Below, piece after piece: positions 4,187 through 61,220 of a stretch of DNA of 64,000 nucleotides. Under the pieces are notes generated by a model, which worked only from the letters and a program-made list of their open reading frames with translations, ran no database searches and was not told where the DNA came from. The first letter of the stretch is position 1; each line of letters begins with the position of its first letter. A program made the translations under genes and the position numbers. Source of the stretch: Sphagnum compactum (taxonomy: Eukaryota). The stretch is taken from positions 16,916,213-16,980,212 of the forward strand of contig OZ234493.1 of the NCBI GenBank assembly GCA_965153455.1, written 5' to 3'.

Positions 4187-5676
4187 TCATAATTCATTGC
4201 ACACAAAAAGATCAAATCTAATTTCCTTGAGACGCCTACAAATAATTGAGAATTTTGGGCGTTCATGTGGATTAGGTGCCCAACACTCCTTGATCAAGGA
4301 GAGTAATTGTGCAAGGTCACTATTGTTGGAAGGCAAAGATGGCCTTTCATGTTGCGGGGAACTAATTCTTTCAAGCACTCTTACCGGGGGGTTACCAAAA
4401 GGGTGCAAATTTCCAGATAAAATTTGTGAACACATGATTCCAAAGCTATAAACATCAGCCTTTCGTGCGGAATAATTTTCCCCAAAAGCCTCTGGGGCCC
4501 TCCATGAAGCTGCTCCACAAATCTGGGACTGCAACATTGATGCAGAAGTATTGACCTTTGTCTTTGCCAAACCAAAATCTGCCAACTTCACCTCGGCATA
4601 CCCATCTGCAAATAACTCAGGGTTTGTGTTGGGACAAACTAAGATGTTATTAGGTTTGAGGTCACGATGTACAACATCTCGTCCATGCAAATATTCCATA
4701 CCTAAAGCAATTTGTAACATAATGTCAATGGCTGCTTGAGGTGTGAATGGATAACGGCGTGAAACCTTTCGTTCCTTGATGTGCCTTTCTAGATTTGTGG
4801 GCATGAGCTCCATCAAAATTGAACACTTGGTAGAATCTTGATGGCAACATATCAATTGCACAATATGTGGATGGTTCAGGTTAGCCATGATTCCAACTTC
4901 ATTTGCAAAATCACGCTTTTGATCCTCATTATCAAAAGGATTAAAGGATTTTTTAGCACAAACCATCCCAAACCATGTGCATTCAGAAACTGCTCCAAAT
5001 GTGCCTAGCCCCAAAAAGTTTCCTGGCTGTGTTTCCAAATCGGTGGTCCAAAGAAACCATGGAAGTGGACCATCTTGTGGGTTGTTGGCACTCATAACAT
5101 TTTGAACCTTTTTCTGGAAATAATCTGCAAGCTTGATTTTTGTTCTTGTTTTCGAATCACCAGTAAGTCCATTCATTGGTTGATGTTGAAGCTCCGCAAT
5201 GTGTGCATTCCAAAACTGTTCATTATTACTTAGATCTTGCCTTTTGAGTTGTTCAAATCTCAAATGAACAAATTCCCATGTACAATCTTCATCCTTCTTT
5301 AACAACCTTGTGCACCATTGCCAATCAACAACAATAGCAACAAATGCATGTACATTGTTCATTTGTGCCAATAATGATTTGAGTTTCCTTGACACATCAC
5401 TGCACTCTTGCACAATCAAGTCTGCTTTCTTCACGATGCGAAACAACTCTTTATATATTGGTGTTGCCCAAGTCTTGTCCATGAGATAAGATTTGTCGGC
5501 CAATATTGTGTCCACCATGCACTTGCACTGTAAGACATTCACATGTAGTTTTGAATTTTGGTTCGATGCTCGATCATCCAAGTCATGTATGGCGGTTAAA
5601 ATCTTTTCTTTGAGAACTTCTATGTTGGCAAAGTTCAATGAAGTTGTTCTGAAGGTGACCTCAATGTCATTGGGAC
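4187..5676 (-). CDS. Terminal exon: MLKL/DUF1221-like helical (4HB/HeLo-like) domain plus TKL-type Ser/Thr protein kinase, copy A
   Basis: ORF 4187-5734 has GLGTFG, CAKK, HRDLKPNN, DFG, APE, DVYSFG and CW..P..RP.F. The N-terminal VNVLQC...KELFRIVKKADLIVQEC resembles the INQRQC...RELYRVFKEGE..V..C pattern of plant MLKL/DUF1221 kinases. Acceptor TTGTAG|GT at 5677/5676 suggests the first 19 ORF codons are intronic. Confidence 0.9.
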
Positions 5677-6755
5677 CTACAAGAACACAATTCAAAATAT
5701 ATGAAAGATGTAATGTCACATCTATGTGAAACATGCATCACAATTATGCTTAGTTCAACAATGTAATTTAGGGTGTGACTACGCATCTAAAAGCCAAAAA
5801 CCATGTTGGATAATGGTGAAAACTATGAATTTTTTCAGATATGTTTTTTTCTTGACATTTTAAAGATATTTTAATCATTCAAAATTGTGTTAAATGACTA
5901 ATAACAATATTCAGGAATTCAAATTAAAAATTCATTAAATTAAATTTTGTGTTTTGGGTTTAGTAAATGACGTTTGAACTTGAGCTAGTGCTATGTCAGA
6001 TTATGGTTAATTTTACAAAGGATTATAAGAAAGACTATTTTTATAAAATAATTTTGATGGCAATTGTTTTTTAATGATAATAAGCTACTACTCACATTTT
6101 TAAAAAATCACAATTTGAAAGATATGGAATTTGAAATTCAAAGTATTTTTAAAATTTTTAATTTGCAAAAGTCCTTTACCACATGTAAATGGGGTGTAAT
6201 GTGCATGACATACAAAACAAAGTTGTAGTTTATGATAAAAGAAACAAAAACCTAAAGTAGTTAACATATTTTGGTATGATTCAAAATTATGATAAATTTT
6301 CAAAATGAAATGCAAAATCTGGCAAAATCTACACACTTTGAAATTTTCATATTTAGTCAAAAATGAATAACAAAAAAAATTTGATCTATTGGGATAACTA
6401 TATGTATTTTTAATAACAAGTTGAAAAATATTTCATTCAAAAAATATTTCATATGAAAAAGTGATAAAAAAACAAAAAGGATTCATAGTCCTTTTGTAAC
6501 GTTATCACGTTGGCTCCTTTGTGTGTACTCACACCCTTCAACAAACTTTTGCATGTGCTAGACTTGTATGTTAGCCCCTAACAACTTGTGTGTGTTTGTG
6601 AAGTCCTCCTTAGTGAAGGAATGACAAAAACAAAATCTACTAATTATGATCCATGACTATCATTTTTACTATTTTATTTTGTATCATCTTCATTTGTGTT
6701 ATTTCATGCATGGACCATGAACATGAAACTTGCAACAAGAGTGTAGGTAGAATAC

Positions 6756-6908
6756 CTTTTAACTTAAAATGATAACCATTTGAAGCATCTTCTAGTGTAG
6801 ACTCATCACCATCCAAAGCATCCTCTAACTCAAAGTGCATGTCTTCCACCTCCTCCTCTGTCGTGCAACTCAAGTAACAATTTGAACTTTCATTGACACC
6901 ATCATTCT
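6756..6908 (-). CDS. Predicted internal exon encoding an acidic 51-aa linker, copy A
   Basis: 153 bp, phase 1 at both ends (TAG| ... AAAG|GTATTC), CTAAC branch-like motif upstream, reads ENDGVNESSNCYLSCTTEEEVEDMHFELEDALDGDESTLEDASNGYHFKLK; same length and open frame in the paralog. Acceptor context is purine-rich, so it is weak. Confidence 0.6.
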
Positions 6909-7103
6909 CTACTCCATTTCATGCACATAATAGAAATGTTAGGATCCAAATATGACATATTTAAACAAAAATGACCACAATACCAACCGATGGCATAAAC
7001 CAAGGCATTTGTTATAAGAACAAATGCTTAAGCGAAAATCTCACAGACGTTGAAGGCATCCTTCATTATTACTTTGAAGGACGAAAAATGATTATAGAAT
7101 CAC

Positions 7104-9513
7104 CTGTCATGAGAAGATTTTTAAAGGCACTCGGTTGACTGCAAATTGATGAGAAATTTGGCGTGTTACTTGCCTCCACATCCCAACACTGCTCTATCAA
7201 AAACGAATTTTGAATATGAACATCAACCTTGTCAAGGTCCTCAAAGGCTCTAAGATAATCCTCCAAGTCCTTTTTGACATCTCCACGAATCCTCAAAGTG
7301 GATGCATTGTTTGGTTCAAGAACATCAACCTTGTCAAGGTCCTCCAAGGCTCCAGCATAATCCTCCAAGTTTTTTTTTACATCTCCACGAATCATCAAAG
7401 TGAAGGCATTGTTTGGCTCAAGAACATCAGCCTTGTTAAGGTCCTCTAAGGCTCCAACATAGTCCTCCAAGTTCAATTTGACATTTCCACGAGTCCTTAA
7501 AGTGAAGGCATTGTTTGGTTCAAGAACATCAGCCTTGTTAAGGTCCTCCAAGGCTCCAACATAATCTTGCAAGTTCCTTTTGACATCTCCATGAATCCTC
7601 AAAATGAAAGCATTGTTTGGTTCAAGAACATCAGCTTTGTCAAGGTCCTCCAAGGCTCCAACATAGTCCTCCAAGTTCAATTTGACATTTCCACGAGTCC
7701 TCAAAATGAAGGCATTGTTTGGTACAAGAAAATCAGCCGTGTTAAGGTCCTCCAAGGCTACAACATAGTCCTTCAACATATATTTGACATTTCCACGAAT
7801 CATCAAAGTGAAAGCACTGTTTGGGTCAAGAACATTAGCCTTGTCAAGGTCCTCTAAGGCTCCAACATAATCCTCCAAGTTCCTTTTAACATCTCCACGA
7901 ATCATCAAAGTGGATGGATTGTTTGGTTCAAGAACATCAACCTTGTCAAGGTCCTCCAAGGTTCCAACATAGTCTTTCAACATATATTTGACATTTCCAC
8001 GAGTCTTCAAAATGAAAGCATTGTTTGGTTCAAGAACATTAGCCTTGTTAAGGTCCTCCAAGGCTACAACATAGTCCTTCAACATACATTTGACATTTCC
8101 ACGAATCATCAAAATGAAGGCACTGTTTGGGTCAAGAACATCAGCATTGTTAAGGTCCTCCAAGGCTCCAACATAATCCTCCAAATTCCTTTTGACATCT
8201 CCACGAATCTTCAAAGTGAAGGCATTGTTTGGTTTAAGAACATCAGCCTTGTCAAGGTCCTCCAAGGCTCCAACATAGTCCTCCAAGTTCAATTTGACAT
8301 TTCCCCAAGTCCTCAAAATGAAGGCATTGTTTGGTTCAAGAACATCAGCTTTGTCAAGGTCCTTCAAGGCTACAACATAGTCTTTTAACATACATTTGAC
8401 ATTTCCACGAATCATCAAAATGAAGGCATTGTTTGGGTCAAGAACATCAGCCTTGTCAAGGTCTTCCAAGGCTCCAACATAGTCCTCCAAGTTCCTTTTG
8501 ACATCTCCACGAATCATCAAAGTGAAAGCATTGTTTGGGTCAAGAACATCAGCCTTGTCAAGGTCCTTTAAGGCTCTAACATAATCCTGCAAGTTCCTTT
8601 TGACATCTCCACAAATCATGAAAGTGAAGGCATCGTTTAGTTCAAGAACATCAGCTTTGTCAAGGTCCTCCAAGGCTCCAACATAATCATGCAAGTTCCT
8701 TTTGACATCTCCACGAATGCTCAAAGTGAAGGGATTGTTTGGTTTAAGAATATCAGCTTTGTCAAGGTCCTCCAAGGCTCCAACATAATCCTCCAAGTTC
8801 CTTTTGACATCTCCACGAATCATCAAAGTGAAAGCATTATTTGGTTCAAGAACATCAGCCTTGTCAAGCTCCTCCAAGGCCCCAACATAGTCCTCCAAGT
8901 TCCTTTTGACATCTCCATGAATCCTAAAAGTGAAGGCATTGTTTGGTTCAAGAACATCAGCGTTGTCAAGGTCTTCCAAGGCTCCAACATAATCCTCCAA
9001 GTTCAATTTGACATTTCCACGAGTCCTCAACGTGAAAGCATTGTTTGGTTCAAAACCATCAGCCTTGTCAAGGTCCTCCAAGGCTCCAACATAGTCTTGC
9101 AAGTTCCTTTTGACATCTCCACAAATCATCAAAGTGAAGGCATTATTTGGTTCAAGAACATCAGCATTGTCAAGGTCCTCCAAGGCTCCAACATAGTCCT
9201 CCAAGTTCCTTTTGACATCTCCACGAATCCTCAAAGTGGAAGCATTGTTTGGTTCAAGAGCATCAGCCTTGTCAAGGTCCTCCAAGGCTCCAACATAGTC
9301 CTTCAACATATATTTGACATTTCCACGAATCATCAAATTGAAGGCATTATTTGGGTCAAGATCATCAGCCTTGTCAAGGTCCTCCAAAGCTCCAACATAA
9401 TCTTGCAAGTTCCATTTGACATCCCCATGAATCATCAAAGTGGATGCATTCTTTGGTTCAAGAATGTCAACCTTGTTAAGACTATCCAAGGCCCCTTGAT
9501 AGTCCTTCAACAT
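7104..9513 (-). CDS. TPR array exon (23 x 34-aa repeats) ending in a kinase subdomain XI-like remnant, copy A
   Basis: ORF 7069-9540, first ATG at 9513; repeat consensus AFTLMIRGDVKRNLEDYVGALEDLDKADVLEPNN fits TPR positions G8, Y17, A20, A27, P32; donor ACAG|GTGATT at 7104/7103. True start uncertain. Confidence 0.88.
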
Positions 9514-9725
9514 CTCTTTGAGTCTTTCACGAATCTTCAAAGTGAATGCATTGTTTGGTTCAAAAACATCAACGTTATCAAGGTCCTTCGAAGCTCCAAA
9601 GCTCCTTGATAGTCTTTCAACATCTATTTCACATTTCCACGTGTGTTATTTAAATGACTCCATTGTTTAATTCATGAACACTAGCCTTGTGAAGGTCCTC
9701 CATGGCTTTTTCGTAAGCCTTTCAT
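7205..9725 (-). repeat. 102-bp tandem repeat array (23 intact plus about 2 degenerate units)
   Basis: CCTTGTCAAGGTCCTCCAAGGCTCCAACATA recurs every 102 bp; units at 9541-9725 contain stops and frameshifts. Confidence 0.97.
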
Positions 9726-10243: not shown

Positions 10244-11872
10244 ATCATAATTTTGTAGCATGTCTTATTATTGAAATTTTTCTTCCCATTCCCCTGTCAT
10301 GTAGCTTGAATGTATATAAAATCTATTTGGTCCAAACATAAATGGGCAAATGATTAATACAAAGAAAAAATTGTTGAATCATTTAGAACATGCACTAATG
10401 TAGTTAGTTCTTTTGTTGATATTCCATTTCAACATGATTTGAAGGACAAACTTAATCATTGCCGAACAATATTGGTGCACAATTCCATCACGTGCATAAT
10501 TACATGCATATGCACAAACCTTGTCCAACATTATTGTTGCCTTATTCCATCAGTTGAATGGAATTATTTCCTTGGCAAACATCATTATTGTAACATTTTA
10601 TTTATATGAAATTCATGACTTTTAACTGTTGTAAAACTACTTGGAGTAGCTAAATGATGCAAGTCCCACTTTTGTTTAAATGAAACTCTTTAATATAATC
10701 TCGTTTGAAACCTAAGAATATGGTGTTCATGTTTTAATTAATCACTACTTGAGTTTTGAAACAAACTCCATTCATCACATCCTTCATACCCTTGAATAAG
10801 AACACAAACTTAGTTTTGACGTTGCAAAACATATTAAATTCAAGATGATAAATGTTTGTGTGTGAAACACATACCTACAAGTTTTGAAAAGTTGCAAAAG
10901 AGGTGATGTTTGAATGACGCTGATAGTTTTTGTTATGCTTTTGTGTTGGTTGCTAGCCCAATGAAGTGGATGTGAGCATTGGGGCAATGAAGAAAAGCAC
11001 GAAGTTAACCCACCTGAATCAAAAATCATGGTAAGTGAACATTTGTGCAAATTTGAATCATTATACAATTGTTATTCGAGGTCAAATATTCATGACACTA
11101 TTAATGCTTTCAAGGACATGGAACCAAAGTTTTGGTGTTTGAGACATACCAGGTTTGACATTAAAGACGTGATGATATGTGAGAAGCATTCACACGTGGT
11201 GATTGGATGATGAACACTTTTCTTGTTGTTGCATTGAGCCACAAAGCCATATAAACATATGCGAGGAGATTGACGGCAATAGCACAACAAAGGAACCAAC
11301 CTTGATAAAAATTTGTAGCAAACTCCTGGATGCAAATTTGAGCCAAGGGTGACTTAGTCCATTGGATTCCTTGCATTTATGCCAGACTAGCGAACATCTT
11401 GGAAGGTGGTTCTGATTAGAGGTTGAGAGAAAGGATCCAAGTGGTCCTTCTAGGATGGTGGATACCATGTGCCATAATTTAGGCTGGTTAAAGTTTTCTG
11501 TGCTACCCGCTCAGAACTTTACTCAGGAATATATTATTGCAGCTGGATGCTTTTCTGTCTTTTCTCTTGTCGTCTTGTGCTTTCACATGGCTCACGATTG
11601 GAAGTCTCTAATAAAGTGATGCAATCCGTGGGTGCGTACTAGACCTGCAACTTCCTGTGACCACTGATTTTTTTGGCTATAAGACAATGGATGCAAGTGA
11701 TGGATTGCGCCGACCATGTGTCAGCAAAGAAAAGTGAGGCCCGTTCCAAGTCCTTTGTCAGAACTTTCCTCTTACCATATAAATCATATCAACTCTTTGC
11801 TTTGTGTAGCTTTTTCTCCCCTCGTTACCTGCTGGGAAACATTGTTCATAATTTCATTTCCCATAAAGTCAT

Positions 11873-16569: not shown

Positions 16570-17370
16570 TAACTATGAAATAAAAAGGTTTACCCAAAAT
16601 ATAAAAAGGTTTTGTTGAAAGGTCGAAGTTTAGCCAAACAAATATATAGGTTTTGCCAATAGTTAAAAATTTAGCCAAGAAGAAATATAAGTTTTACTAA
16701 GAGAGAAAAAAATGGCCAAAAAGAAATATAAATGTTGGCAAGAGTTAGAAGTTTTGCCAAAAATTAAAAGTTTAGCAAAGAATAGAAATAGGTTTTGCCA
16801 AAAGAGAAAAGTTTAACCAAAGGATATAAGTTTTACTAAAAGAAAAGTTTAACCAAGAAGAGATATAGGTTTTGCCAAGAGATAAATTTTTTTACCAAAA
16901 GATAAAAATTAACCAAGAAGGGATATAGGTTTATGCAAAGAGAGAAAATTTTAGCCAAAAATATATATAAGTTTTGCCAAGAGATAAAAGTTTAGCTAAG
17001 AAAAAATATAGGTTTTGCCAAAAGAAAAAAAATAAACCAAGAATAGATATAATTTTTGCCAAAAAGAAAAAGTTTAACTGAAGAAAATATATAGTTTTGC
17101 CAATAGAGAAAAGTTTAGCCAAAAAAGGTACAGGTTTTGCCAATAGAAAAAAGTTTAACCAAAAAGAAATATAAGTTTTATCAAGAGAAAAAAAATTAGC
17201 CAAGAAAATATATAAGTTTTGCCAAGAGATAAAAATTTTGCCAAGAAAAAATTTAATTTTTGCCAAGAAAGAAAAGTTTACCGAAAAAAAGATATAAGTT
17301 TTGCTAAAAGATAGAAGTCTAGCCAAGAATAGATATAGGTTTAGCCAAGAAAAGATATAGGTTTTGCTAG
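16570..17370. repeat. Degenerate ~40-bp tandem array (AAGTTTAGCCAAGAAAAGATATAGGTTTTGCC-like)
   Basis: Motifs TTTAGCCAA and ATATAGGTTTTGCCAA recur throughout; an inverted copy of the motif lies at about 13137-13195. Confidence 0.8.
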
Positions 17371-32941: not shown

Positions 32942-34837
32942 TGTCATGGCCTAGGATATTTTGGGATACTTTTGACAATGTCATGTCCTAAGATATTTTG
33001 GGATACTTTTGGCAATATCATGGCCTAGGATACTTTTAGATACTTTTGGCAATATCATGGCCTAGGAAATTTTGGGATTAGTATGGCTCAGGGTTATAAA
33101 AGGAGATAGTCTGGGGAACAACCCTTCAGCAGATCAACACCAGTTGATGGGTCAATAAAGCTTGTCTTGTCTTGTAATTCTCCACTTGTTTGTAATCGGT
33201 CCATAACAGTTTGATCTGCTCCTTCTTCTTGTTTGTTTGTTTTGTTGTTTCAGTAAGTAACTAGAGGTATCTTGGAGTGAAACTTGGAAAGGTTATAGAA
33301 GACTATAGGACGCTTCTACTCTCAAAGTTTCAAAAGAAAAGGATATATTTTGTGAGAGTTAAGAGCTTTTGAAAACTTTGTGCCAGATCTGGTTTTTTGG
33401 TCATATCTCCTTTGTTTAAGCTTTTTTGGGCTTGTAACTTTGTGATCTTATAGATCATATAAGAATATATGTGTGAGAGAAATTTCATGTCATTTGGCCT
33501 TGTATTGAGAGAGATCCAAGCATCTGAAGTTTCAAGTGTAGATCTGGTTTTTTGGTGATATCTCCTTTGTTTAAGCTTTTTTGGGTCTGTAACTTTGTGA
33601 TCTTATAGATCATGTAGGAATATATGTGTGAGAGAAATTTCATGTCATTTGGACTTGTATTGAGAGAGATCCAAGCATCTGAAGTTTCAAGTGCAGATCT
33701 GGTTTTTTGGTCATATCTCCTTTGTTTAAGCTTTTTTGGGTCTGTAACTTTGTGATCTTATAGATCATATAGGAATATATGTGTGAGAGAAATTTCATGT
33801 CATTTGGACTTGTATTGAGAGAGATCCAAGCATCTGAAGTTTCAAGTGCAGATCTGATTTTTTGGTCATATCTCCTTTGTTTAAGTTTTTTTGGGTCTGT
33901 AACTTTGTGATCTTATAGATCATGTAGGAACATATGTGTGAGAGAAATTTCATGTCATTTGGACTTGTATTGAGAGAGATCCAAGCATCTGAAGTTTCAA
34001 GTTTGAAGATTGAAAGCGCAAAAGTGTGAGAACTACCACCATGGACAACTCAGAATCAAACATCGATCTCACTCAAATCCTCGCCGCCCTTCAGCACCTT
34101 CAACAAGAAAATGTCGTGCTTAGAGACTCGGTGACCCGCCTCCAAAATCAGCCACCACCTCCTGCCCCAGTACTTCCTGCTCTTGCAATGGCCGCCCCAG
34201 AACCCAAGATCAATCTGCCAGAAAAGTTTGATGGAACGCGCCTCAAATTTTGAGGCTTTGTCAGCCAGGTACGCCTGATCATGCAACTACACCCCCGTCA
34301 TTATTTTGATGACACCACTCGTGTAGGATTCGTTGGAACCCTACTCACTGGGATAGCAGCAGCATGGTTTGCTCCCATCCTGGAAACATCATCCCCTCTC
34401 CTACAAGATTTCAACGCCTTTATGGCGGAATTTGAAGCAGTATTTGGGGACAGTGACAAGGCCAGGACTTCAGCCAACAAGTTGCGTCGCCTCCAGCAAG
34501 GGACACGTTCGGCCATCGTTTACGCCTTAGAATTCAGGCAGTTTGCCTGCGACGTCAATTGGGGAGAAGCTGCCTTGATTGATCAGTTTCGCTGTGGGTT
34601 TCGTGATGATGTTCAAGATCTTTTGTTGACACTCGCAGACCCTTCTTCCTTCAGTGAAGCCATCACCCATGCAATTCGGTGCGATAATCGTCTGTTCGAA
34701 CGTCGCTAGGAAAAGAAAGTCACCTCCAACGCCCAGCTTTGGAACAATCGGCCTACTACGCTCCCCTTAGTTCCCTAAACAACACCAGTTGCGCAACCTG
34801 CCTCTTTTGGACCTGCTCCGATGCAGATCGACACATC
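32942..34837 (+). mobile_element. Inverted partial copy of the chromovirus (5' LTR 32942-33208, 5' UTR, truncated gag)
   Basis: Near-identical reverse complement of about 38990-40882; gag ORF translations are identical, including the same premature stops. Confidence 0.95.
33385..34002 (+). repeat. 4 x 155-bp tandem repeat in the retrotransposon 5' UTR (mirror at about 39824-40441)
   Basis: AGATCTG unit starts at 33385, 33540, 33695 and 33850. Confidence 0.95.
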
Positions 34838-35104
34838 TGTTATGGACCGACTACAAACAAGTGGAGAATTACAAGACAAGACAAGCTTTATTGACTCATC
34901 AACTGGTGTTGATCTGCTGAAGGGTTGTTCCCCAGACTATCTCCTTTTATAACCCTGAGCCATACTAGTCCCAAAATATCCTAGGCCATGATATTGCCGA
35001 AAGTATCCCAAAATATCCTAGGCCATGATATTGCCAAAAGTAACCCAAAATATCCTAGGACATGACATTGTCAAAAGTATCCCAAAATAGCCTAGGCCAT
35101 GACA

Positions 35105-38100
35105 TTATCCTCTCCTCAAGCGACATCTTCCAGATGGAGCCGGTTTGTTAGGATACCGTTGGTGAAACCGATTAACTAAGTCTTGGGCATGAACTAGGTT
35201 TCCAACAGGCTCCCAAGTAGCTTCAGAAGGAGGATAACCTCCCCAAGAGACAAGGTACAGGAGCTTTCCACGAATCTTCTTGGAATCCAAGACCTCCTGA
35301 ACTTCAAACTCTTCTTGGCCTTCAATTTCGATTGGAGCTGGAGGTTCTTGATGACGTTTTGGGATCGAGTTTTCATGATAGGGTTCAAGCAGGGAGACAT
35401 GGAAAACATTGTGGATTTTGAATTGGGGTGGAAGCTCCAACTGGCAAGCCACTAGACCAACCAATTTGGCGATTTTGAAAGGTCCGAGGCGCTTGTAATC
35501 CAACTTGGCACATGGGCGAGTGGTAGCAATGTTCTTTCTGAGAAGCCAGACCTTGTCTCCAACCTTGAAGTTTGGATGGTCCTTGCGTCGGCGGTCTGCT
35601 TGCTTCTTTTGCCACTCCTGTGTTAGCTTGAGTTCTGCCATAAGGTTTTGTTGAACCTGTCCAAGCCTCGTGGCCCTTTCTTCAGCCGAGGGGTTTACGG
35701 AGTCTCCAGGAATTTCAAGGCTGAACCTGGGATGAAAACCGTAATTGGCAAAGAATGGAGTAATCCCGGTCGATGCATGTGTTGTGTTATTATAAGCAAA
35801 CTCTGCTTGAGATAGTAAGTCCAGCCAGTCGTCCTGTTGGTAGTTCACAGTGCAGCGAAGGTATTGTTCGAGTGTCTGGTTTGTCCATCTGTCTCAGGGT
35901 GGAAAGCTGAAGATAGCCGAATGTCAACTCCAAGAAGCTCAAATAAACGATGCCAGAACTTGGATGCAAACTGAGGACCTCTGTCGGACACAATTTCCTT
36001 GGGGAGTCCATGCAGTTGGACGATCCCGTCCAGAATTAACTAAGCTGTCTCTTCTGCCATGATTGACTTGGAACAAGGGGTGAAATGGGCCATTTTGGTG
36101 AATCGATCGACCACAACCAGTATTGAATTCTTGGTTCTAACAGTAGGGAGGTCCGTGATGAAGTCCATTGCAATAGATCCCCAAGGTCGGCTAGGAATCG
36201 ACAGAGGCTGTAGGAGTCCAAACGGGCGATGCCTGGGAGCCTTGGATCAAGCACATGTATCACAAGACTTGACATACTCTCGTAGCATCTTGTTCATTTT
36301 GGGCCACCAGTAAGTCCTTGACACTAGTTCGTGAGTCCGTGCCATTCCAAAGTAACCCGCCAGGGTGTTGTCGTGGCATTCTCTCAGGATTTTTAGGCGT
36401 ATAGGTCCTTCGGGTACATAAATTAGGTTATTTCGAAGGAGAAGTTCGTCTTGCTGCTCAAACTGATCCAAGCCATCATGATTTGGGTTTCTTGGTCATT
36501 CCTGGAGTTCCTTCTTGATGTTGGTAGCCCAGGTGTCTTCCTCAGTTGCCATTTTGATGTCCTTGACAAGGTATGAGTCTGGGAGGGTGCTGATTGTTGC
36601 TGCAACTCGAAATTGCTCGGGGTTGAGTAAAGTCTGGTTCTGCTGGCCGTAGGCCTCATCCCTCGCTCGAAGTTCATATTCTGAACGACGAGATAACGCG
36701 TTAGCTTTCCCTTGTTGGGTGCCGGGTTGATACTGAATCTCAAAGTCGAAATCAGCTAGGAAGATAGACCAGCGTGCATGGCGACGATTTAAGATCCGAG
36801 TAGTTGTGAAATAAAGGAGATTCTTGTGATCTGTCAAAACTTGGACTCGATGTTGAGCTCTAGCAAGATACGGTGTCCACTGCTCGAATGCCGTGATGAT
36901 TGCCAGGAGTTCCTTATCGTAGACCTGATAGTTGATTTCGGCACTGGTTAACTTCCGTGAATAGAAAGCAACTGGATGCACCAACCCATCTATTCCAAGT
37001 TGAGATAGAATAGCTCCCAAGGCAAAATCTGAAGCGTCCGTTTCCACAATGAATGGCTTGGCAGGATCGGGATGTATCAGGATGGGTGCAGAGGTGAATG
37101 CCATCTTGAGAGTATCAAAAGCAGCCTGAGCCGTTAGATTCCACGAGAAGGGCTTGTCTTTGCAAGTCAGGGTTATTAACGGTGTTGTGATCTTGGAGTA
37201 GCCTTTGATAAACCGACGATAGAAGTTGGCAAACCTTAGGAAGCGTTGAACGTCCTTGACCGAGGATGGAGTAGCCCAACATTGGATGATCTCGACCTTT
37301 GACTTGTCCATGAAAATGCCATCTGGAGAGATCACGTAGCCAAAGAACGCCACTGAAGATTTGTCGAATTCACATTTTTCCAACTTGGCGTATAAGCCAT
37401 GCTCCCGGAGCGTCGCAAGCACCAATCGTACATGTTTGTCATGGGTTTCCTGGTCCTTGGAAAAGATTAAAATGTCATCCAAATAGACCACGACAAATTC
37501 GTCCATGTAATCCCGGAAGATATCATTCATCAGATGCTGAAAGACTGCGGGTGCATTGGTGAGGCCGAAGGGCATGACCGTGTATTCGAAGTGGCCGTAG
37601 CGTGTGCGGAAAGCTGTCTTCCATTCATCACCGGGGCGAATCCTGAGTAAGTTGTAGGCTCCACGGAGGTCAAGCTTGGTGAAGATCTTTCCGGTACGTA
37701 GTCGATCTAGGAGACTTGAAATCAAAGGCAAGGGATATCGATTCTTTTTGGTTATTTTGTTGAGTCCACGATAATCCACACAGAGTCGAAGGGAGCCATC
37801 CTTCTTCTTAACAAACAAAATTGGGGCGCCGGCTGGAGACTTGGAATGCTGAATGAACCCCTTGGCAAGATTTTCAGTAAGGTAATCACGCAGGGCTTGG
37901 AGTTCCGGTTCCGATAGGCCATAGATAGGACCAAAAGGTGGTGAGTGTCCTTCTTCTAGATCAATCGGGCAGTCATATGGACTATGGGCGAGGAGCTGAT
38001 CAACATTCATCTTTTCAAAAACATCAACAAAGTCCTTGTACTTCTCGGGGAGTTTGACAGGTGTTGGTTCTGATTGGGGGTTTGTGGTGTTGGCTGGGTT

Positions 38101-38934
38101 GACATGGATGGCGAAGACTTGAAGATTCTTAGCAGCCCGATAGAAAGGGACAGCTCTATCAACGAAGATCTGGACAGGGTTGGTTTTTTAGGCAAGATTC
38201 TTGACAGGACAAGGTTTAATTCTGACCAACCGGGGGTTCTTGACTGCAGGACTTGACATAACAGACTTGATAAAACTGAAATTGGTTCCGACCCTCTTTG
38301 GGTTCTCGACCACAGGGTTCTCGGCAGGACTAAACAAAGTGTTTTTCTGAGCGTGGGGTTCTTGAGAGGTGCACCGTTGTGCGCTAAAGGTGAGGGTTCT
38401 AGATCGCCAATCAATGATAGGGTTGTGTGCTTCTAGCCAAGGCAGACCAAGGATGATGGGATGGTGAGGGGTGGAGATGATGTTGAGAACAATCTTCTCC
38501 GTGTGCTTGCCGATACAAAGTTCTAGAGGGGTTGTCTCGTGTGTGATTGCACCAGAAGTAATGGTTCTCCCATCAATAACCTCTACCGGAACAGGGGTTG
38601 ATTTCTTGACCACAGGGATGTTGTGTTGGACGACAAATGTTTGGTCGATGAAAGAAGAGGTGGCGCCGGAATCCACCAAAGCTGACAGTTGTGCTATGTC
38701 TTCTGGAATACGAATGATGTCCACATACTGAGTGAAACTGGGACTGGGACCAACAGCAGAACAGGAGCCTTTGCAAAGGTGGTGTTGGGTGAGATCCAGT
38801 CGCACGGCTCCTACTATGACTGGATGTTCTTGTTTTCCAACTCTTGGGGAGTTTCCACAGCTTGTACTTGAAGTTTGACAAGCTTTTGAGGGCACTGACG
38901 AGCTATATGCCCTGGGTTGCCATAGTAAAGACAT
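35105..38934 (-). pseudogene. pol: pol: protease, RT, RNase H, integrase and chromodomain, broken by frameshifts
   Basis: LVDSGAT, YLDDILI, ETDASD, integrase fragments, GPF motif, FEVQEVLDSKKIRGKLLYLVSWGGY...TWEP chromodomain; split over several ORFs. Confidence 0.93.
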
Positions 38935-39785
38935 AGATTGTTTGTCCTTCGACGAAGTTTCTCGGCTTCTGTCAAAGATTTAAACTTAGCTGTGTCGATC
39001 TGCATCGGAGCAGGTCCAAAAGAGGCAGGTTGCGCAACTGGTGCTGTTTGGGGAACTAAGGGGAGCGTAGTAGGCCGATTGTTCCAAAGCTGGGCGTTGG
39101 AGGTGACTTTCTTTTCCTAGCGACGTTCGAACAGACGATTATCGCACCGAATTGCATGGGTGATGGCTTCACTGAAGGAAGAAGGGTCTGCGAGTGTCAA
39201 CAAAAGATCTTGAACATCATCACGAAACCCACAGCGAAACTGATCAATCAAGGCAGCTTCTCCCCAATTGACGTCGCAGGCAAACTGCCTGAATTCTAAG
39301 GCGTAAACGATGGCCGAACGTGTCCCTTGCTGGAGGCGACGCAACTTGTTGGCTGAAGTCCTGGCCTTGTCACTGTCCCCAAATACTGCTTCAAATTCCG
39401 CCATAAAGGCGTTGAAATCTTGTAGGAGAGGGGATGATGTTTCCAGGATGGGAGCAAACCATGCTGCTGCTATCCCAGTGAGTAGGGTTCCAACGAATCC
39501 TACACGAGTGGTGTCATCAAAATAATGACGGGGGTGTAGTTGCATGATCAGGCGTACCTGGCTGACAAAGCCTCAAAATTTGAGGCGCGTTCCATCAAAC
39601 TTTTCTGGCAGATTGATCTTGGGTTCTGGGGCGGCCATTGCAAGAGCAGGAAGTACTGGGGCAGGAGGTGGTGGCTGATTTTGGAGGCGGGTCACCGAGT
39701 CTCTAAGCACGACATTTTCTTGTTGAAGGTGCTGAAGGGCGGCGAGGATTTGAGTGAGATCGATGTTTGATTCTGAGTTGTCCAT
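38814..39785 (-). pseudogene. gag: gag (capsid plus zinc knuckle) with two premature stops
   Basis: PKINLPEKFDG, LRRLQQG...Y..EF, PMQID, CLYYGNPGHIARQC (degenerate CCHC); TGA after GTRLKF and TAG after FERR. Confidence 0.9.
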
Positions 39786-40882
39786 GGTGGTAGTTCTCAC
39801 ACTTTTGCGCTTTCAATCTTCAAACTTGAAACTTCAGATGCTTGGATCTCTCTCAATACAAGTCCAAATGACATGAAATTTCTCTCACACATATGTTCCT
39901 ACATGATCTATAAGATCACAAAGTTACAGACCCAAAAAAACTTAAACAAAGGAGATATGACCAAAAAATCAGATCTGCACTTGAAACTTCAGATGCTTGG
40001 ATCTCTCTCAATACAAGTCCAAATGACATGAAATTTCTCTCACACATATATTCCTACATGATCTATAAGATCACAAAGTTACAGACCCAAAAAAGCTTAA
40101 ACAAAGGAGATATGACCAAAAAACCAGATCTGCACTTGAAACTTCAGATGCTTGGATCTCTCTCAATACAAGTCCAAATGACATGAAATTTCTCTCACAT
40201 ATATTCTTATATGATCTATAAGATCACAAAGTTACAGACCCAAAAAAGCTTAAACAAAGGAGATATCACCAAAAAACCAGATCTACACTTGAAACTTCAG
40301 ATGCTTGGATCTCTCTCAATACAAGGCCAAATGACATGAAATTTCTCTCACACATATATTCTTATATGATCTATAAGATCACAAAGTTACAAGCCCAAAA
40401 AAGCTTAAACAAAGGAGATATGACCAAAAAACCAGATCTGGCACAAAGTTTTCAAAAGCTCTTAACTCTCACAAAATATATCCTTTTCTTTTGAAACTTT
40501 GAGAGTAGAAGCGTCCTATAGTCTTCTATAACCTTTCCAAGTTTCACTCCAAGATACCTCTAGTTACTTACTGAAACAACAAAACAAACAAACAAGAAGA
40601 AGGAGCAGATCAAACTGTTATGGACCGATTACAAACAAGTGGAGAATTACAAGACAAGACAAACTTTATTGACCCATCAACTGGTGTTGATCTGCTGAAG
40701 GGTTGTTCCCCAGACTATCTCCTTTTATAACCCTGAGCCATACTAATCCCAAAATTTCCTAGGCCATAATATTGCCAAAAGTATCCAAAAATATCCTAGG
40801 CCATGATATTGCCAAAAGTATCCCAAAATATCTTAGGACATGACATTGTCAAAAGTATCCCAAAATATCCTAGGCCATGACA

Positions 40883-54648: not shown

Positions 54649-56138
54649 TCACAATTCATTGCACAACAAAAGATCAAGTCTAATTTCTTTGAGACACCTA
54701 CAAATAATTGAGAATTTTGGGCGTTCATGTGGATTAGGTGCCCAACACTCCTTGATCAACGAGAGTAATTGTGCAAGGTCACTGTTGTTGGAAGGCAAAG
54801 ATGGCCTTTCATGTTGTGGGGAACTAATTCTTTCAAGCACTCTTATTGGGGGGTTACCAAAAGGGTGCAAATTTCCAGATAAAATTTGTGAGCACATGAT
54901 TCCAAAGCTATAAACATCAGCCTTTTGTGCAGAATAATTTTCCCCAAAAGCCTCCGGTGCCCTCCATGGAGCTGCTCCACAAATCTTGGATTGCAACATT
55001 GATGCAGAGGTATTGACCTTTGTCTTTGCCAAACCAAAATCTGCCAACTTCACCTCAGCATACCCAGCTGCAGATAATTCAGGGTTTGTGTTGGGAGAAA
55101 CCAAGATGTTATTAGGTTTGAGGTCACGATGTACAACATCTTGTCCATGCAAGTATTCCATACCTAAAGTAATTTGTAACATAATGTCAATGGCTGCTTG
55201 AGGTGTGAATGGATAACGGCGTGAAACCTTTCGTTCCTTGATGTGTCTTTCTAGATTTCTGGGCATGAGCTCCATCAAAATTGAACACTTGGTAGAATCT
55301 TGATGGCAACATATCAATTGCACAATATGTGGATGGTTCAAGTTAGCCATGATTCCAACTTCATTTGCAAAATCACGGATTTGATCCTCATTATCAAAAG
55401 GATTAAAGGATTTTTCAGCACATACCATCCCAAACCATGTGCATTCAGAAACTGCTCCAAATGTGCCTAGCCCCAAAAAATTTCCTGGCTGTGTTTCCAA
55501 ATTGGTGGTCCACATAAACCATGGAAGTGGACCCTCTTGTGGGTTGTTGGCACTCATAACATTTTGAACCCTTTTTTGCAAATAATTTGCAAGCTTGATT
55601 TTTGCTCTTGTTTTAGAATCACCAGTAAGTCCATCCATTGGTTGCTGATGAAGCTCCACAATGTGCGCATTCCAAAACTGTTCATTATTACTTAGATCTT
55701 GCCTTTTGAGTTGTTCAAATCTCAAATGAACAGATTCCCATGTATAATCTTCATCCTTCTTTAACAACCTTGTGCACCATTGCCAATCAACAACAACAGC
55801 AACAAATGCATGCACATTGTTCATTTGTGCCAATAATGATTTGAGTTTCCTTGACACATCACTGCACTCTTGCACAATCAAGTCTGCTTTCTTCACAATG
55901 CGAAACAACTCTTTATATATTGGTGTTGCCCAAGTCTTGTTCATGAGATAAGACTTGCTGGCCACTATTGTGTCCACCATGCACTTGCACTGCAAGACAT
56001 TCACCTGTAGTTTTGAATTTTGGCTCGATGCTCGATCATCCAAGTCATGTATGGCTATTAAAGTCCTTTCTTTGAGAACTTCTCTGCTAGCAGAGTTTAG
56101 TGAAGTTGTTGTGAAGGTGACCTCAATATCATTGGCAC
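54649..56138 (-). CDS. Terminal exon: MLKL/DUF1221-like helical domain plus kinase, copy B
   Basis: Intact ORF, roughly 90% amino-acid identity to copy A by manual count; CAEK, HRDLKPNN, DFG and APE retained; acceptor CTGTAG|GT at 56139/56138. Confidence 0.88.
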
Positions 56139-57225
56139 CTACAGGAACACAATTCAAAGTATATGAAAGATGTAATGTCACATCTATGTGAAACATGAAT
56201 CACAATTATGCTTAGTTCAACAATATAATTCAAGGTACAAATATGCATCTAAGAGCAAAAAACCATGTTGAATAGTGGTGAAAACTATGGATTTTTTCAC
56301 ATATGTTTTTGTTTTGACATTTTAAAGATATGTTAATCATTTAAAGTTGTGTTAAATGACTAATATGAATGTTGAGGAAGTCATAATATAAGTTCATTCA
56401 ATTAAATTTTGGGTTTTGGGTTTAGTAAGTGACGTTTAAACTTGAACATGTGTTACGTGAGATTATGGTTTATTTTTCAAAGGACTATATGAAGGACTAT
56501 TTTAATAAAATAATTTTGATGGTAAAAAAAATTGGATGATAATAACCTACTACTCACATTCAAAAAAATATTCACAATTTAAAAGATATGGAATTTGAAA
56601 CTTTTAGAAATTCAAAGTATTTTTTAAAAATTTAAATTTGCAAAAGTCTTTTACACATGTAAATGGGGTGTAATGTGCATGACATAAAAAAAAAGTTGTA
56701 GTTTATGAAAAAGAAACAAAAACCTAAAGTAGTTAACATATTTTGATATGATTCAAAATTATGTTAAATTTACAAGATGAAATGCAAATCTTGGCAAATT
56801 TTACACACTTCAAAAATTTCATATTTATTCAACAATGATTAACACAAAAAATGTGATCTATTGGGGCAACTATATATGTATTTAATAACAAGTTGAAAAA
56901 TATTTCATTCAAAAATTATTTCATATGAAAAAGTGATAAAGGAACAAAAATGATTCATAGTCCTTTTATAATGTAATCTTGTTGGCTCTTTTGTGTGTAC
57001 TTGCACCTTTCAACAAACTTTTGCATGTGCAAGACTTGTATGTTAGCCCATGACAATATGTGTGTGTTTGTGAAGTCCTTTTTAATGAAGGTATGACAAA
57101 AACCAAATCTACTAATTATGATCCATGACTATCCTTTTCACTACTCTATTTTGTATCAGCTTCATTTGTGTTACTTCATGTAGACCATGAACATGGAACC
57201 TACAACAAGAGTGTAAGTAGAATAC

Positions 57226-57686: not shown

Positions 57687-60600
57687 CTGTCATGAGAAGA
57701 TGTTTAAGAACACTTGGTTGGCTGTAAATTGATGAGAAATTTGGCCAGTTACTTGCCTCCACATCCCAACATTGCTCTATCAAGAATGGGTTTTCAATAT
57801 GAACATCAACCTTATCAAGGTCCTTAAAGCCTCCAACATAATCTTGCATGTTCCTTTTAACGTCTTCATGACTCTTCAAAGTGGATGCATTGTTTGGTTC
57901 AAGAACATCAGCCTTGTCAAGGTCCTCCAAGGCTCCAACATAGTCCTCCAAGTTCCTTTTGATTCTTCCACGAGTCTTCAAAGTGAAGGCATTGTCTGGT
58001 TCAAGAACACTAGCCTTCTCAAGGTCCTCCAAGGCTCCTTCATAATCTTTCAACACATATTTGACATTTCCACGAGTCCTCAAAATGAAGGCATTGTTTG
58101 GTTCAAAAACGTCAGCCTTGTCAAGGTCCTCCAAAGCTCCAACATAGTCCTCCAAATTCCTTTTGACTCTTCCACGAGTCTTCAAAGTGAAGGCATTGTT
58201 TGGTTCAAGAACATTAGCCTTCTCAAGGTCCTCCAAGGCTCCTTCATAGTCCTTCAACACATATTTGACATTTCCACGAGTGCTCAAAGTGAAGGCATTG
58301 TTTGGTTCAAGAACATCAGCCTTCTCAAGGTCCTCCAAGGCTCCAACATAATCCTGCAAGTTCATTTTGACATTTCCACGAGTCTTCAAAGTGAAGGCAT
58401 TGTTTGGTTCAAAAACATCAGCCTTGTCAAGGTCTTCCAAGGCTCCTTCATAGTCCTCCAAGTTCCTTTTGACTCTTCCACGAGTGCTCAAAGTGAAAAC
58501 ATTGTTTGGTTGAAAACCATCAGCCTTGTCAAGGTCCTCCAAGGCTCCTTCATAATCCTTCAACACATATTTGACATTTCCACGAGTGCTCAAAGTGAAG
58601 GCATTGTTTGGTTCAAGAACATTAGCCTTGTCAAGGTCCTCCAAGGCTCCAACATAATCTTCCAAGTTCCTTTTTACTCTTCCACGAGTGCTCAAAGTGA
58701 AGGCATTGTTTGGTTCAAGAACATCAGCCTTGTCAAGGTCCTCCAAGGCTCCAACATAATCCTCCAAATTTCTTTTGACATTTCCACGAATCATCAAAGT
58801 GGATGCATTGTTTGGGTCAAGAACATCAGCCATGTCAAAGTCCTTCAAGGCTCCAAACATAATCCTGCAAGTTCCTTCTGACATTTCCACGAATCATCAA
58901 AATGGATGCATTGTTTGGGTCAAGAACATCAGCCTTGTCAAGGTCCTCCAAGGCTCCAACATAATCCTCCAAGTTCCTTTTGACATTTCCACGAGTCCTC
59001 AAAGTGGATGCATTGTTTGGTTCAAGAACATCAACCTTATCAAGGTCCTCCAAGGCTCCAACATAATCCTCCAAGTTCCTTTTGACTCTTCCACGAGTCT
59101 TCAAAGTGAAAACATTGTTTGGTTCAAGAACATTAGCCTTCTCAAGGTCCTCCAAGGCTCCTTCATAGTCTTTCACCACATATTTAACATTTCCACGAGT
59201 GCTCAAAGTGAAAGCATTGTTTGGTTCAAAAACATCAGCCTTGTCCAGGTTCTCCAAGGCTCCAACATAGTCCTGTAAATTCATTTTAACATTTCCACGA
59301 GTCTTCAAAGTGAAGGCATTGTTTGGTTCAAGAACATCAGCTTTGTCAAGGTCCTCCAAGGCTCCTTCATAGTCCTTCAATACATATTTGACATTTCCAC
59401 GAGTGCTGAAAGTGAAAGCATTGTTTGGTTCAAGAACATTAGCCTTGTCAAGGTCCTCCAAGGCTCCAACATAGTCCTCCAAGTTTTTTTTGACATTTCC
59501 ACGAATCATCAAAGTGGATGCATTGTTTGGTTCAAGAACATCAGCTTTGTCAAGGTCTTCCAAGGCTCCAACATAATCCTCCGAGTTCCTTTTGACATCT
59601 CCACGAATCATCAAAGTGAAGGCATTGTTTGGGTCAAGAACATTAGCCTTGTCAAGGCCCTCCAAGGCTCCAACATAATGCTCTAAATTCTTTTTGACAT
59701 CTCCACAAATCATCAAAATGGATGCATTGTTTGGATCAAGAACATTAGCCTTGTCAAGGTCCTCCAAGGCTCCAATATAGCCCTTCAAATTCCTTTTGAC
59801 ATCTCCACGAATCATCAACGTGAAGGCATTGTTTGGTTCAAGAACATCGGCCTTGTCAAGGTCCTGCAAGGCTCCAACATAGTCTTCCAAGTTCCTTTTG
59901 ACATTTCCACGAATCATCAAAGTGAAGGCATTGTTTGGGTCAAGAACATCGGTCATGTCAAGGTCTTCCAAGGCTCCAACATAGTCTTACAAGTTCCTTT
60001 TGACATTTCCACGAATCATCAAAATTGATGCATTGTTTGGGTCAAGAACATTAGCCTTCTCAAGGTCCTCCAAGGCTCCAACATAATTCTGCAAGTTCCT
60101 TTTGACTCTTCCACGAGTTTTCAAAATGAAGGCATTGTTTGGTTCAAGAAAATTAGCTTTCTCAAGGTCCTCCAAGGCTCCTTCATAGTCCTTCAACACG
60201 TATTTGACATTTCCACGAGTGCTCAAAGTGAAGGCATTGTTTGGTTCAAGAACATCAACCTTTTCAAGGTCCTCCAAGGCTCCTACATAGTCTTGCAAGT
60301 TCATTTTGACATTTCCACGAGTCTTCAAAGTGAAGGCCTTGTTTGGGTCAAGAATATCAGCCGTGTCAAGGTCTTCCAAGGCTCCTTCATAGTCCTTCAA
60401 CACATATTTAACATTTCCACGAGTGCTCAAAGTGAAGGCATTGTTTGGGTCAAGAACATCAGCCGTGTCAAGGTCCTCCATGGCTCCAACATAGTCCTCC
60501 AAGTTCATTTTGACATTTCCACGAGTGCTCAAAATGAAGGCATTGTTTGGATCAAGAACATCAACCGTGTCAAGGTCCTCCAAGGTTCCAACATAGTCTT

Positions 60601-61220
60601 GCAAGTTGATTTTGACATTTCCACGAGTGCTCAAAATGAAGGCATTGTTTGGTTCAAGAGCATCAGCCTTGTCAAGGTCTTGCAAGGCTCCAACATAGTC
60701 TTCCAAGTTCCTTTTGACATTTCCACGAATCTTCAAAGTGAAAACATTGTTTGATTGAAGAACATCAGCCTTGTCAAGGTCCTCCAAGCCTCCAACATAG
60801 TCCTCCAAGTTCATTTTGACATCTCCACGAATCATTAAAATGGATGCATTGTTTGGTTCAAGAACATCAGCCTTGTCAAGGTCCTCCAAGGCTCCAACAT
60901 AATCTTGCAAGTTCCTTTTGACATTTCCACGAATAATCAAAGTGGATGCATTGTTTGGTTCAAGAACATCAACCTTGTTAAGGTCTTCCAAGGCCCTTTG
61001 ATAGTCCTTCAACATCTTTTTTGACTCTTCCATGAGTCTTCAAAGTGAATGCATTGTTTGGTTCAAGAACATTAACCTTGTCAAGGTCCTCCAAAGCTCC
61101 AACACAGTCCTGCAAGTTCCTTTTGACATCTCCATGAATCATCAAAATGGATGCATTGTTTAGTTCAAGAACATGAACCTTGTCAAGGTCCTCTAAAGGT
61201 CCTTCATAAATTTTCAACAC
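57687..61220 (-). pseudogene. TPR array exon, copy B: 34 units, disrupted
   Basis: +1 insertion in a T run (61017-61022), TAA at 59987-59989, +1 insertion at about 58857; donor is GC rather than GT at 57686; further degenerate units extend to about 61525. Confidence 0.8.

Follow-up and report, generated by a model that had tools for sequence, protein, structure and literature searches.

Is the variation among the units of a long tetratricopeptide repeat (TPR) array a modular recognition code, and in what kind of protein does such an array stand? This question is raised by a locus on contig OZ234493.1 of the moss Sphagnum compactum (assembly GCA_965153455.1), where positions 16,916,213 to 16,980,212, a stretch of 64,000 nucleotides termed here the window, carry two TPR arrays on the minus strand, copy A near one end and copy B near the other. 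An earlier, sequence-only reading of the DNA had proposed that the unit differences are concentrated at the positions lining the ligand groove, and that the order of unit types sets binding specificity and is under diversifying selection. The new element is that RNA joints tie the array of copy A to a downstream open reading frame (ORF), which gives a 1350-aa protein with an MLKL3-like C-terminal half bearing the catalytic motifs of a kinase. Register homology places the concentration of unit differences at canonical ligand-contact positions, and these form robustly the least constrained class of position in the unit. The reading that we favor, at somewhat better than even confidence, is that the locus encodes a probable TPR-sensor/MLKL-like protein, the unit types of which arose early and were spread by duplication.

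Gene Structure and Expression

The gene of copy A is spliced and expressed, and its three confirmed exons encode in turn some 22-23 TPR repeats, an acidic linker and the MLKL-like module (Table 1). The joint 7104->6908 was found in five reads of the polyA run X22, which carries the same species label as the window, and in metatranscriptome contigs of X15 and X16, while the joint 6756->5676 was covered by seven X22 reads with six start points. The first mates all lie on the plus strand, which fits a minus-strand RNA. Read from the ATG at 9513, the spliced frame meets no stop for 1350 codons and then closes with the stop codon of the 515-codon kinase ORF downstream. The start of the 'MLKDYQGAL' type is common to four Sphagnum or metagenome proteins (P0004, P0013, P0014 and P0026), and the candidate 5' mini-exon, MQQQEKCSSSNHH, resembles the N-terminus of the Sphagnum fallax protein P0001.

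On the genomic strand, the minus-strand open frame 7069-9540 appears as 823 codons built of 34-residue units. A stand-alone TPR protein of 823 aa was rejected, since the stop of this frame lies inside a confirmed intron. The last 33 codons of the TPR exon were compared with the C-terminal motifs of the downstream kinase and of the metagenome protein P0002; this tail is probably the relic of an older kinase fusion, in which case the array would once have stood behind a kinase gene or have been inserted into one.

The RNA coverage of the locus is uneven. At 7270-7360, many reads align partially and then run into other unit variants of the 'MLDDYQ' type, which indicates that several paralogous TPR arrays are expressed in the organism. 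Coverage at a low depth (0.4-1.0) runs on past the acceptor at 5676 into the upstream intron, at 5710-6051, and the coverage of the kinase exon is 2-4 times that of the linker exon. Possible sources of this unevenness are cross-mapping from copy B and a transcript of the kinase alone that begins at an internal start.

Table 1. Coordinates, in window positions, of the features of the two gene copies and of the retrotransposon between them
Feature	Position	Strand	Description
Possible 5' mini-exon	11195..11233	-	MQQQEKCSSSNHH, 13 codons, then GTGTGA; would splice to AG 9515-9514, directly before ATG 9513; predicted
TPR exon	7104..9513	-	ATG 9513 ('MLKDYQGAL') to the GT donor after 7104; from ORF and RNA joint
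Copy A TPR array	7204..9549	-	23 units of 102 bp (34 aa); Tandem Repeats Finder, Pfam TPR_2 (E 8e-48) and register of consensus TPRs
TPR exon tail	7104..7203	-	Kinase subdomain XI-like LIEQCWDVEASNTPNFSSI, last 33 codons; motif 'CW....RP.F..I'
Intron 1	6909..7103	-	GT..AG; contains the stop codon (7069-7071) of the apparent 823-aa ORF
Short exon	6756..6908	-	Acidic linker
Intron 2	5677..6755	-	GT..AG after a 'cut +2' shift
Last coding exon	4187..5676	-	Stop 4187-4189; helical bundle and brace (~5676-5030), then protein kinase
Copy B TPR array	57787..61154	-	33 units; in-frame TAA in B12 (59989-59987); +1 base in B23 (~58857)
Copy B MLKL-like kinase ORF	54649..56196	-	515 aa, open
Ty3/gypsy (chromovirus-type) long terminal repeat retrotransposon	33384-40880	-	Between the gene copies
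Retrotransposon protease	38188-38934	-	
Retrotransposon reverse transcriptase/RNase H	36496-38010	-	
Retrotransposon integrase SH3 and chromodomain	35105-35848	-	

Repeat Array and Register

By Tandem Repeats Finder, a period of 102 bp (0% indels) is repeated 23.4 times at 7218-9599 and 33.2 times at 57801-61193. Copy A was cut into 23 in-frame units of 102 bp on the minus strand, from A01 (9549-9448) to A23 (7305-7204), and copy B into 33 units running from 61154 to 57787 on the same strand. Together these make 56 units, or 57-58 when the degenerate relic unit that precedes each array is included, close to the 57 counted in the sequence-only reading. The helix A of A01 is degenerate and contains the ATG, and A23 is degenerate at its end. 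The mean pairwise amino-acid identity between units reaches 0.757 in copy A and 0.748 in copy B (approximately 76% overall), with a maximum of 0.94-0.97. In both copies, relic TPR units with stop codons lie directly upstream of the start codon (9550-9651 and 61052-61256, minus strand).

The assignment of the copy A frame to the TPR families is supported by Pfam, where TPR_2 scored 157 bits (cut-off 27) and TPR_1 scored 120 bits (cut-off 27.8; E 1e-35). Profile positions 4-34 of TPR_2 fall on unit positions 4-34, so the numbering adopted in the sequence-only reading is the canonical TPR numbering. The nearest sequences in the PDB are designed consensus TPRs, including 9qhb, 7obi (CTPR-rv4), 8bu0, 3kd7 (CTPR390) and 1na0 (CTPR3), which share an identical 34-residue register and align gapless across 4-6 repeats of the array. 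Position counts were taken from 52 units, with the degenerate end units A01, A23, B02 and B33 excluded, and the near-invariant scaffold proposed earlier was recovered: G8 in 52/52, V10, K11 and Y17 in 51/52 each, D16 and A20 in 49/52 each, and P32 in 50/52. Another TPR signature residue, A27, is present in 45/52. The TPR consensus has Leu at position 7 and Tyr at position 11, which are occupied in the array by Arg and Lys, respectively.

The TAL effectors Hax3 and AvrBs3 also matched 8734-9447 (minus strand) at E ~1e-7. This candidate homology was rejected, as the value is a sum of weak PDB matches with 0 significant stretches, and the matches most likely arise from the shared 34-residue helical periodicity rather than from homology.

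Variation among the Repeat Units

All of the alternatives listed in the sequence-only reading were found among the units, namely F/S at position 2, M/R/K/S at position 5, I/T at position 6, D/N at position 9 (with R in copy B), R/Y/L/C/W/K at position 12 (with M/I in copy B) and N/M at position 13 (with V in copy B). The named types recur as well: MIRGDVKRN was observed five times, RTRGNVKLN three times, MIRGNVKYM twice, STRGNVKYV six times and KTRGRVKRN three times. The mean entropy of these six positions is 1.39 bits against 0.56 bits at the other 28, and 853 of the 1,344,904 possible six-position sets reach 1.39 bits. For copy A alone, the values are 1.14 and 0.49 bits, with 10,705 of 1,344,904 sets as high, and for copy B alone 1.28 and 0.52 bits, with 724 sets as high; since the units share descent, none of these set counts is a true probability.

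The claim that the variation is concentrated at these six positions is thus borne out by their mean entropy and needs amendment in its details. Ranked by entropy, the positions run 12, 5, 15, 31, 9, 29, 13, 25, 6 and 3, such that third and fourth place go to positions 15 (E/K/Q) and 31 (E/D), respectively, and position 2 comes in only near the fifteenth. Further variable positions are 3, 7, 18, 25, 28 and 29, and the earlier list had overlooked positions 15, 31, 3, 7 and 18. Positions 12, 13, 15 and 18 co-vary, for example as Y-M/V-K-(E), and positions 33 and 34 are nearly fixed as N-N. In copy B, units of the YV type and of the K/S type alternate, a pattern seen seven times, and the two arrays hold some unit types in common and others that are private to each. 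Across 11 homologous proteins, each with at least six detected units, the within-protein entropy ranks positions 9, 5, 6, 15, 13, 29 and 12 first; on this comparison, the variation pattern is a property of the family, not of the single locus.

In TPRs at large, the most variable positions are described as 2, 5, 9, 12, 13, 33 and 34, located on the concave face, and the TPR1 and TPR2A domains of HOP touch their peptides via positions 2, 5, 6, 9, 12 and 13 (Magliery & Regan 2005, PMC1261162). The six positions named in the sequence-only reading coincide exactly with this HOP contact set, so that its premise on the helix-A groove was right. On a helical wheel of 100 degrees, the six positions fall at 20-140 degrees and the eight remaining helix-A positions at 180-360 degrees. 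By register homology, therefore, the unit differences are concentrated on a single face of helix A, the one holding the canonical positions for concave ligand contact. Groove-centered variation of this kind is a general TPR property and already known.

The MLKL-like Kinase Half

The C-terminal half of the protein matches Pfam Pkinase (E 2e-49), and the best PDB sequence matches of its 495 residues, obtained with phmmer and covering brace and kinase, are 6lba_A (E 4e-36) and 6ka4_A (E 3e-34), the latter being AtMLKL3 (bioRxiv 10.1101/681015). An AlphaFold2 (AF2) model built from an alignment of 51 sequences reached a mean predicted local distance difference test score (pLDDT) of 80.6 and places helices at residues 15-195 ahead of the kinase. 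In Foldseek, 6ka4_A ranks first for this model over 544 columns (TMq 0.62), whereas the other matches listed span approximately 280-325 columns each and cover the kinase domain alone. The helical part (residues 1-215) has no Pfam family, with chance-level matches only at E up to 1. By modeled fold and sequence together, the C-terminal module is homologous to plant MLKL, with an N-terminal helical bundle, a brace and a kinase.

When the features of plant MLKL are taken in turn, the four-helix (HeLo) bundle and brace before the kinase-like domain are present in the AF2 model and the Foldseek alignment, and two other features are different. The domain is not a pseudokinase by its motifs, as GxGxxG, the beta-3 Lys, HRD (HRDLKPNN), DFG and APE are all kept. 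Nor is there a serine-rich C-terminal extension, the last helix being at 475-491 of the 495 residues.

The Second Copy

The TPR part of copy B, which lies 50 kb from copy A, is a duplicate in decay. In addition to the in-frame stop and the frameshift within the array (Table 1), a further base is inserted upstream of its ATG (61015); the splice sites are kept, but the donor after the TPR exon is GC, and the putative first donor, at the mini-exon, reads AT instead of GT. The kinase ORFs of the two copies differ at a synonymous rate (dS) of 0.109 and a nonsynonymous rate (dN) of 0.040, with dN/dS (omega) at 0.37 overall and 0.22 in the kinase domain, and the flanks of the copies are 87-91% identical. 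No low-distance diagonal, and hence no clean positional orthology, was detected between the A and B arrays, where only scattered collinear nearest pairs occur (A02-B03, A05-B13, A08-B16, A17-B22 and A22-B24). The start of each duplicated segment is marked by an AT-rich tandem repeat of approximately 300 bp, at 513-1221 and 51321-52116.

Related Proteins and Known Systems

The best named relatives of both the TPR and the kinase ORF are Sphagnum proteins. An array of the same TPR unit family stands ahead of another kinase in P0001 (S. fallax BDL97_05G115300) and in P0019 (Ceratodon purpureus KC19_1G295400), both annotated as hypothetical proteins. P0001 has 65% identity over the repeats, but its kinase is of the receptor-like-kinase type and its units number only about 9-11. 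In the metagenome protein P0002, the MLKL-like half comes first and units of the same TPR family follow at the C-terminus (30% identity, query residues 25-482); this is the reverse of the order TPR then MLKL-like, which is seen in none of the proteins listed. Among the 120 longer relatives listed for the kinase half, no close one has TPR families, which is weak evidence. No description of a TPR-MLKL-like architecture in bryophytes was found in full-text searches of the literature, although the supplementary tables of MLKL and NLR surveys may list such genes.

With HOP TPR1/TPR2A and with CTPR3, CTPR390 and CTPR-rv4, the array shares the 34-residue register, the residues G8, A20, A27 and P32, and the 'DPNNA' inter-repeat turn. 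Unlike canonical TPR domains, it has approximately 22-23 repeats instead of three, and its positions 33 and 34 are near-fixed, whereas those of TPRs in general are described as variable (PMC1261162).

The TPR arrays of fungal NLRs are reported to consist of near-identical tandem units with differences in repeat number and with variable or selected concave sites, and they have been proposed as a diversifiable recognition module joined to a cell-death or signaling domain (Dyrka et al. 2014, PMC4986451). The present locus resembles them in its tandem TPR units, its differences in repeat number and its concave variable sites. It differs in its host, which is a plant, in evidence of selection that is ambiguous, and in its partner, since Pfam lists TPR and kinase families only, and neither NACHT nor NB-ARC, for the TPR ORF, the kinase ORF and the helical part. 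In the brown alga Ectocarpus, NB-ARC-TPR genes are described with repetitive TPR modules, inactivated relic units beside active ones, signs of diversifying selection and a repeat order scrambled between recent paralogues (Zambounis et al. 2012, PMC3341825). Relic units with stops adjoin the array here too, but the algal genes have one exon per repeat and an NB-ARC partner, whereas the whole array is one exon here and its partner is an MLKL-like kinase.

To plant MLKL (AtMLKL1-3; PDB 6KA4 and 6LBA), a family described for seed plants (bioRxiv 10.1101/681015), the 495 C-terminal residues are alike in the helical bundle, the brace and the kinase fold. The aligned 6lba chain reads HGD (HGDLNPMN) and GFG where HRD and DFG stand here, and the present protein has an N-terminal TPR array and no serine-rich tail.

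Selection on the Groove Codons and Competing Explanations

Pairwise comparison by the method of Nei and Gojobori (NG86) gave a dN of 0.444 and a dS of 0.154 at the six codons, a ratio of 2.89 (2.07-4.37 by bootstrap over units), against 0.49 at the other 28 codons. When dN was set over the all-codon dS, the contact set reached 2.33 (1.93-2.79), the outer helix B 0.76 (0.59-0.96), turn and loop 0.67 and the packing positions 0.37. Codon fits with an FEL-type MG94 model on maximum-likelihood unit trees returned an omega of 2.48 (p 7e-4) for the six codons when these were left out of the tree, compared with 0.66 for the rest and 0.82 for the outer helix B; among units, omega is 0.66 overall. Constraint is robustly weakest at the concave class of positions and clearly weaker there than on the other exposed face. 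Whether their omega exceeds 1 depends on the treatment of unit genealogy and recombination.

The gap between these measures and the all-site fit given below is explained by the placement of the changes under parsimony on the all-site tree, where internal branches take 20 of the 37 replacements in the groove as against 10 of the 83 synonymous changes (Fisher p 5e-6). At the tips, there are 17 replacements over the six groove codons and 108 over the 28 others, which per codon is no groove excess. Nothing points to an arms race now under way, and we read the type-defining replacements as old and propagated by duplication. The diversifying selection proposed in the sequence-only reading accordingly keeps the excess of nonsynonymous change in the pairwise measures (2.3-2.9) and in the fit on the six-codon-free tree, and loses its footing in the all-site fit reported below and in the recent tip changes, which are not focused on the groove.

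On the reading that we favor, the repeats would build a long solenoid, as their sequence register suggests, and a few unit types would have arisen via early replacements at positions 5, 6, 9, 12 and 13. These types would then have been spread by duplication of units and unit pairs together with exchange within and between arrays, a step suggested by the internal-branch excess and by the alternation of types in copy B, while the packing scaffold has been held by purifying selection (omega 0.37 at packing positions and 0.61, p 8e-4, at the other 28 codons on the all-site tree). The groove would bind a putative protein or peptide ligand, and ligand binding may control the MLKL-like kinase/executor half, making the protein a single-chain sensor-executor. 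The analogy to AtMLKL and to repeat-bearing receptors makes immunity its most plausible role.

Several points weigh against this reading. On the all-site tree, the omega of the six codons is 0.96 (p 0.9), so that the groove variation could be a simple lack of constraint; none of the six sites is individually significant for positive selection on that tree, and at site 13 the signal is significantly negative. There is some circularity in the internal-branch excess, as groove replacements help shape the tree. Helix-A type and the nucleotide distance across codons 19-34 are not associated (Mantel r 0.05, a value reached by 355 of 2000 permutations), from which it follows that whole-unit descent alone is insufficient and that exchange within units (recombination) or convergence must also occur, either of which would inflate the pairwise ratio and the omega of the six-codon-free tree. 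The single-sequence AF2 model of the 814-aa TPR exon has a pLDDT of 44 with a helix A that is not helical, and the concave assignment is hence based on register homology, not on the model. At position 7328, 183 of 237 reads carry G, not A, and the depth over the array is dominated by paralogue reads. For the fungal NLR arrays, highly conserved repeats are defined by at least 85% identity over at least 100 aa (PMC4986451), whereas the mean here is 76%. The immune role, finally, is an argument by analogy.

Chief among the alternatives, and in our judgment unlikely, is neutral relaxation, by which the six positions vary for no other reason than their solvent exposure and their place outside the packing, the types merely reflect which units chanced to be duplicated, and there is neither ligand-driven selection nor a code. 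The near-unity omega of the all-site fit is what such relaxation would give, as are the nonsynonymous rates of sites 2, 6, 9 and 13 in that fit (0.29-0.50, under the average), the lack of a groove excess among tip replacements and the overall unit omega. It does not account for the outer helix B, which is likewise exposed and yet has a dN/dS of 0.76 where the concave positions have 2.33, nor for the same disparity in the fit on the six-codon-free tree, and the same positions lead in the 11 homologous proteins.

An ongoing arms race with a positional code, in which each unit type reads one element of an extended ligand and the order of units spells the specificity, as the sequence-only reading had it, is improbable in our estimate. 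In modular codes of the TALE or PPR type, one or two specificity residues let each repeat read a single ligand element. The high pairwise ratios were obtained at a contact set fixed a priori and the omega of 2.48 on an independent tree, and copies A and B differ in unit number (23 and 33) and carry private types; fungal NLR TPR arrays are reported to act in this manner (PMC4986451). Both positive measures are, however, inflated by recombination, the groove has neither a recent excess at the tips nor an elevated omega on the all-site tree, and the disabled copy B contributes 31 of the 52 units. Moreover, no TPR is known to read a ligand one repeat per element.

Still less probable is a decaying, non-functional remnant whose pattern, inherited from functional family ancestors, would be meaningless for this locus, for although the array of copy B is interrupted by a premature TAA and by a frameshift, relic units with stops precede both start codons and the TPR exon ends in a kinase-like relic, copy A keeps a 2.4-kb open frame that continues across two confirmed splices to 1350 aa, the non-groove codons are under purifying selection (omega 0.49-0.66) and the attached kinase has an omega of 0.22 between the copies.

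Other Elements in the Window

Blocks of tandem repeats with periods of 155 bp and 37 bp flank the retrotransposon between the two gene copies (Table 1). An A-rich tandem repeat of 41/82 bp occupies approximately 0.7 kb at 16626-17350.

Significance

The variation pattern in itself is textbook TPR behavior and adds little, and the surrounding gene is of greater interest. Plant MLKLs have been described as seed-plant pseudokinases that depend on upstream sensors, while one expressed transcript here joins an array of 23 TPR repeats to an MLKL-like module whose kinase is intact. If the array is a recognition module, the gene would offer a simple system for how an MLKL-type executor is switched on, and would show the diversification of a repeat array in a haploid-dominant plant. 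As a tentative and rather doubtful extension, Sphagnum-lineage mosses may carry NLR-independent single-chain immune receptors, in which a TPR-solenoid sensor with a conserved scaffold and a diversified groove is fused to an executor composed of an MLKL-like helical bundle and an active kinase, and which diversify by unit duplication and exchange among many expressed paralogues. Such receptors, if this is true, would be a plant counterpart, independently reached, to the receptors with shuffled repeats found in fungi and brown algae.

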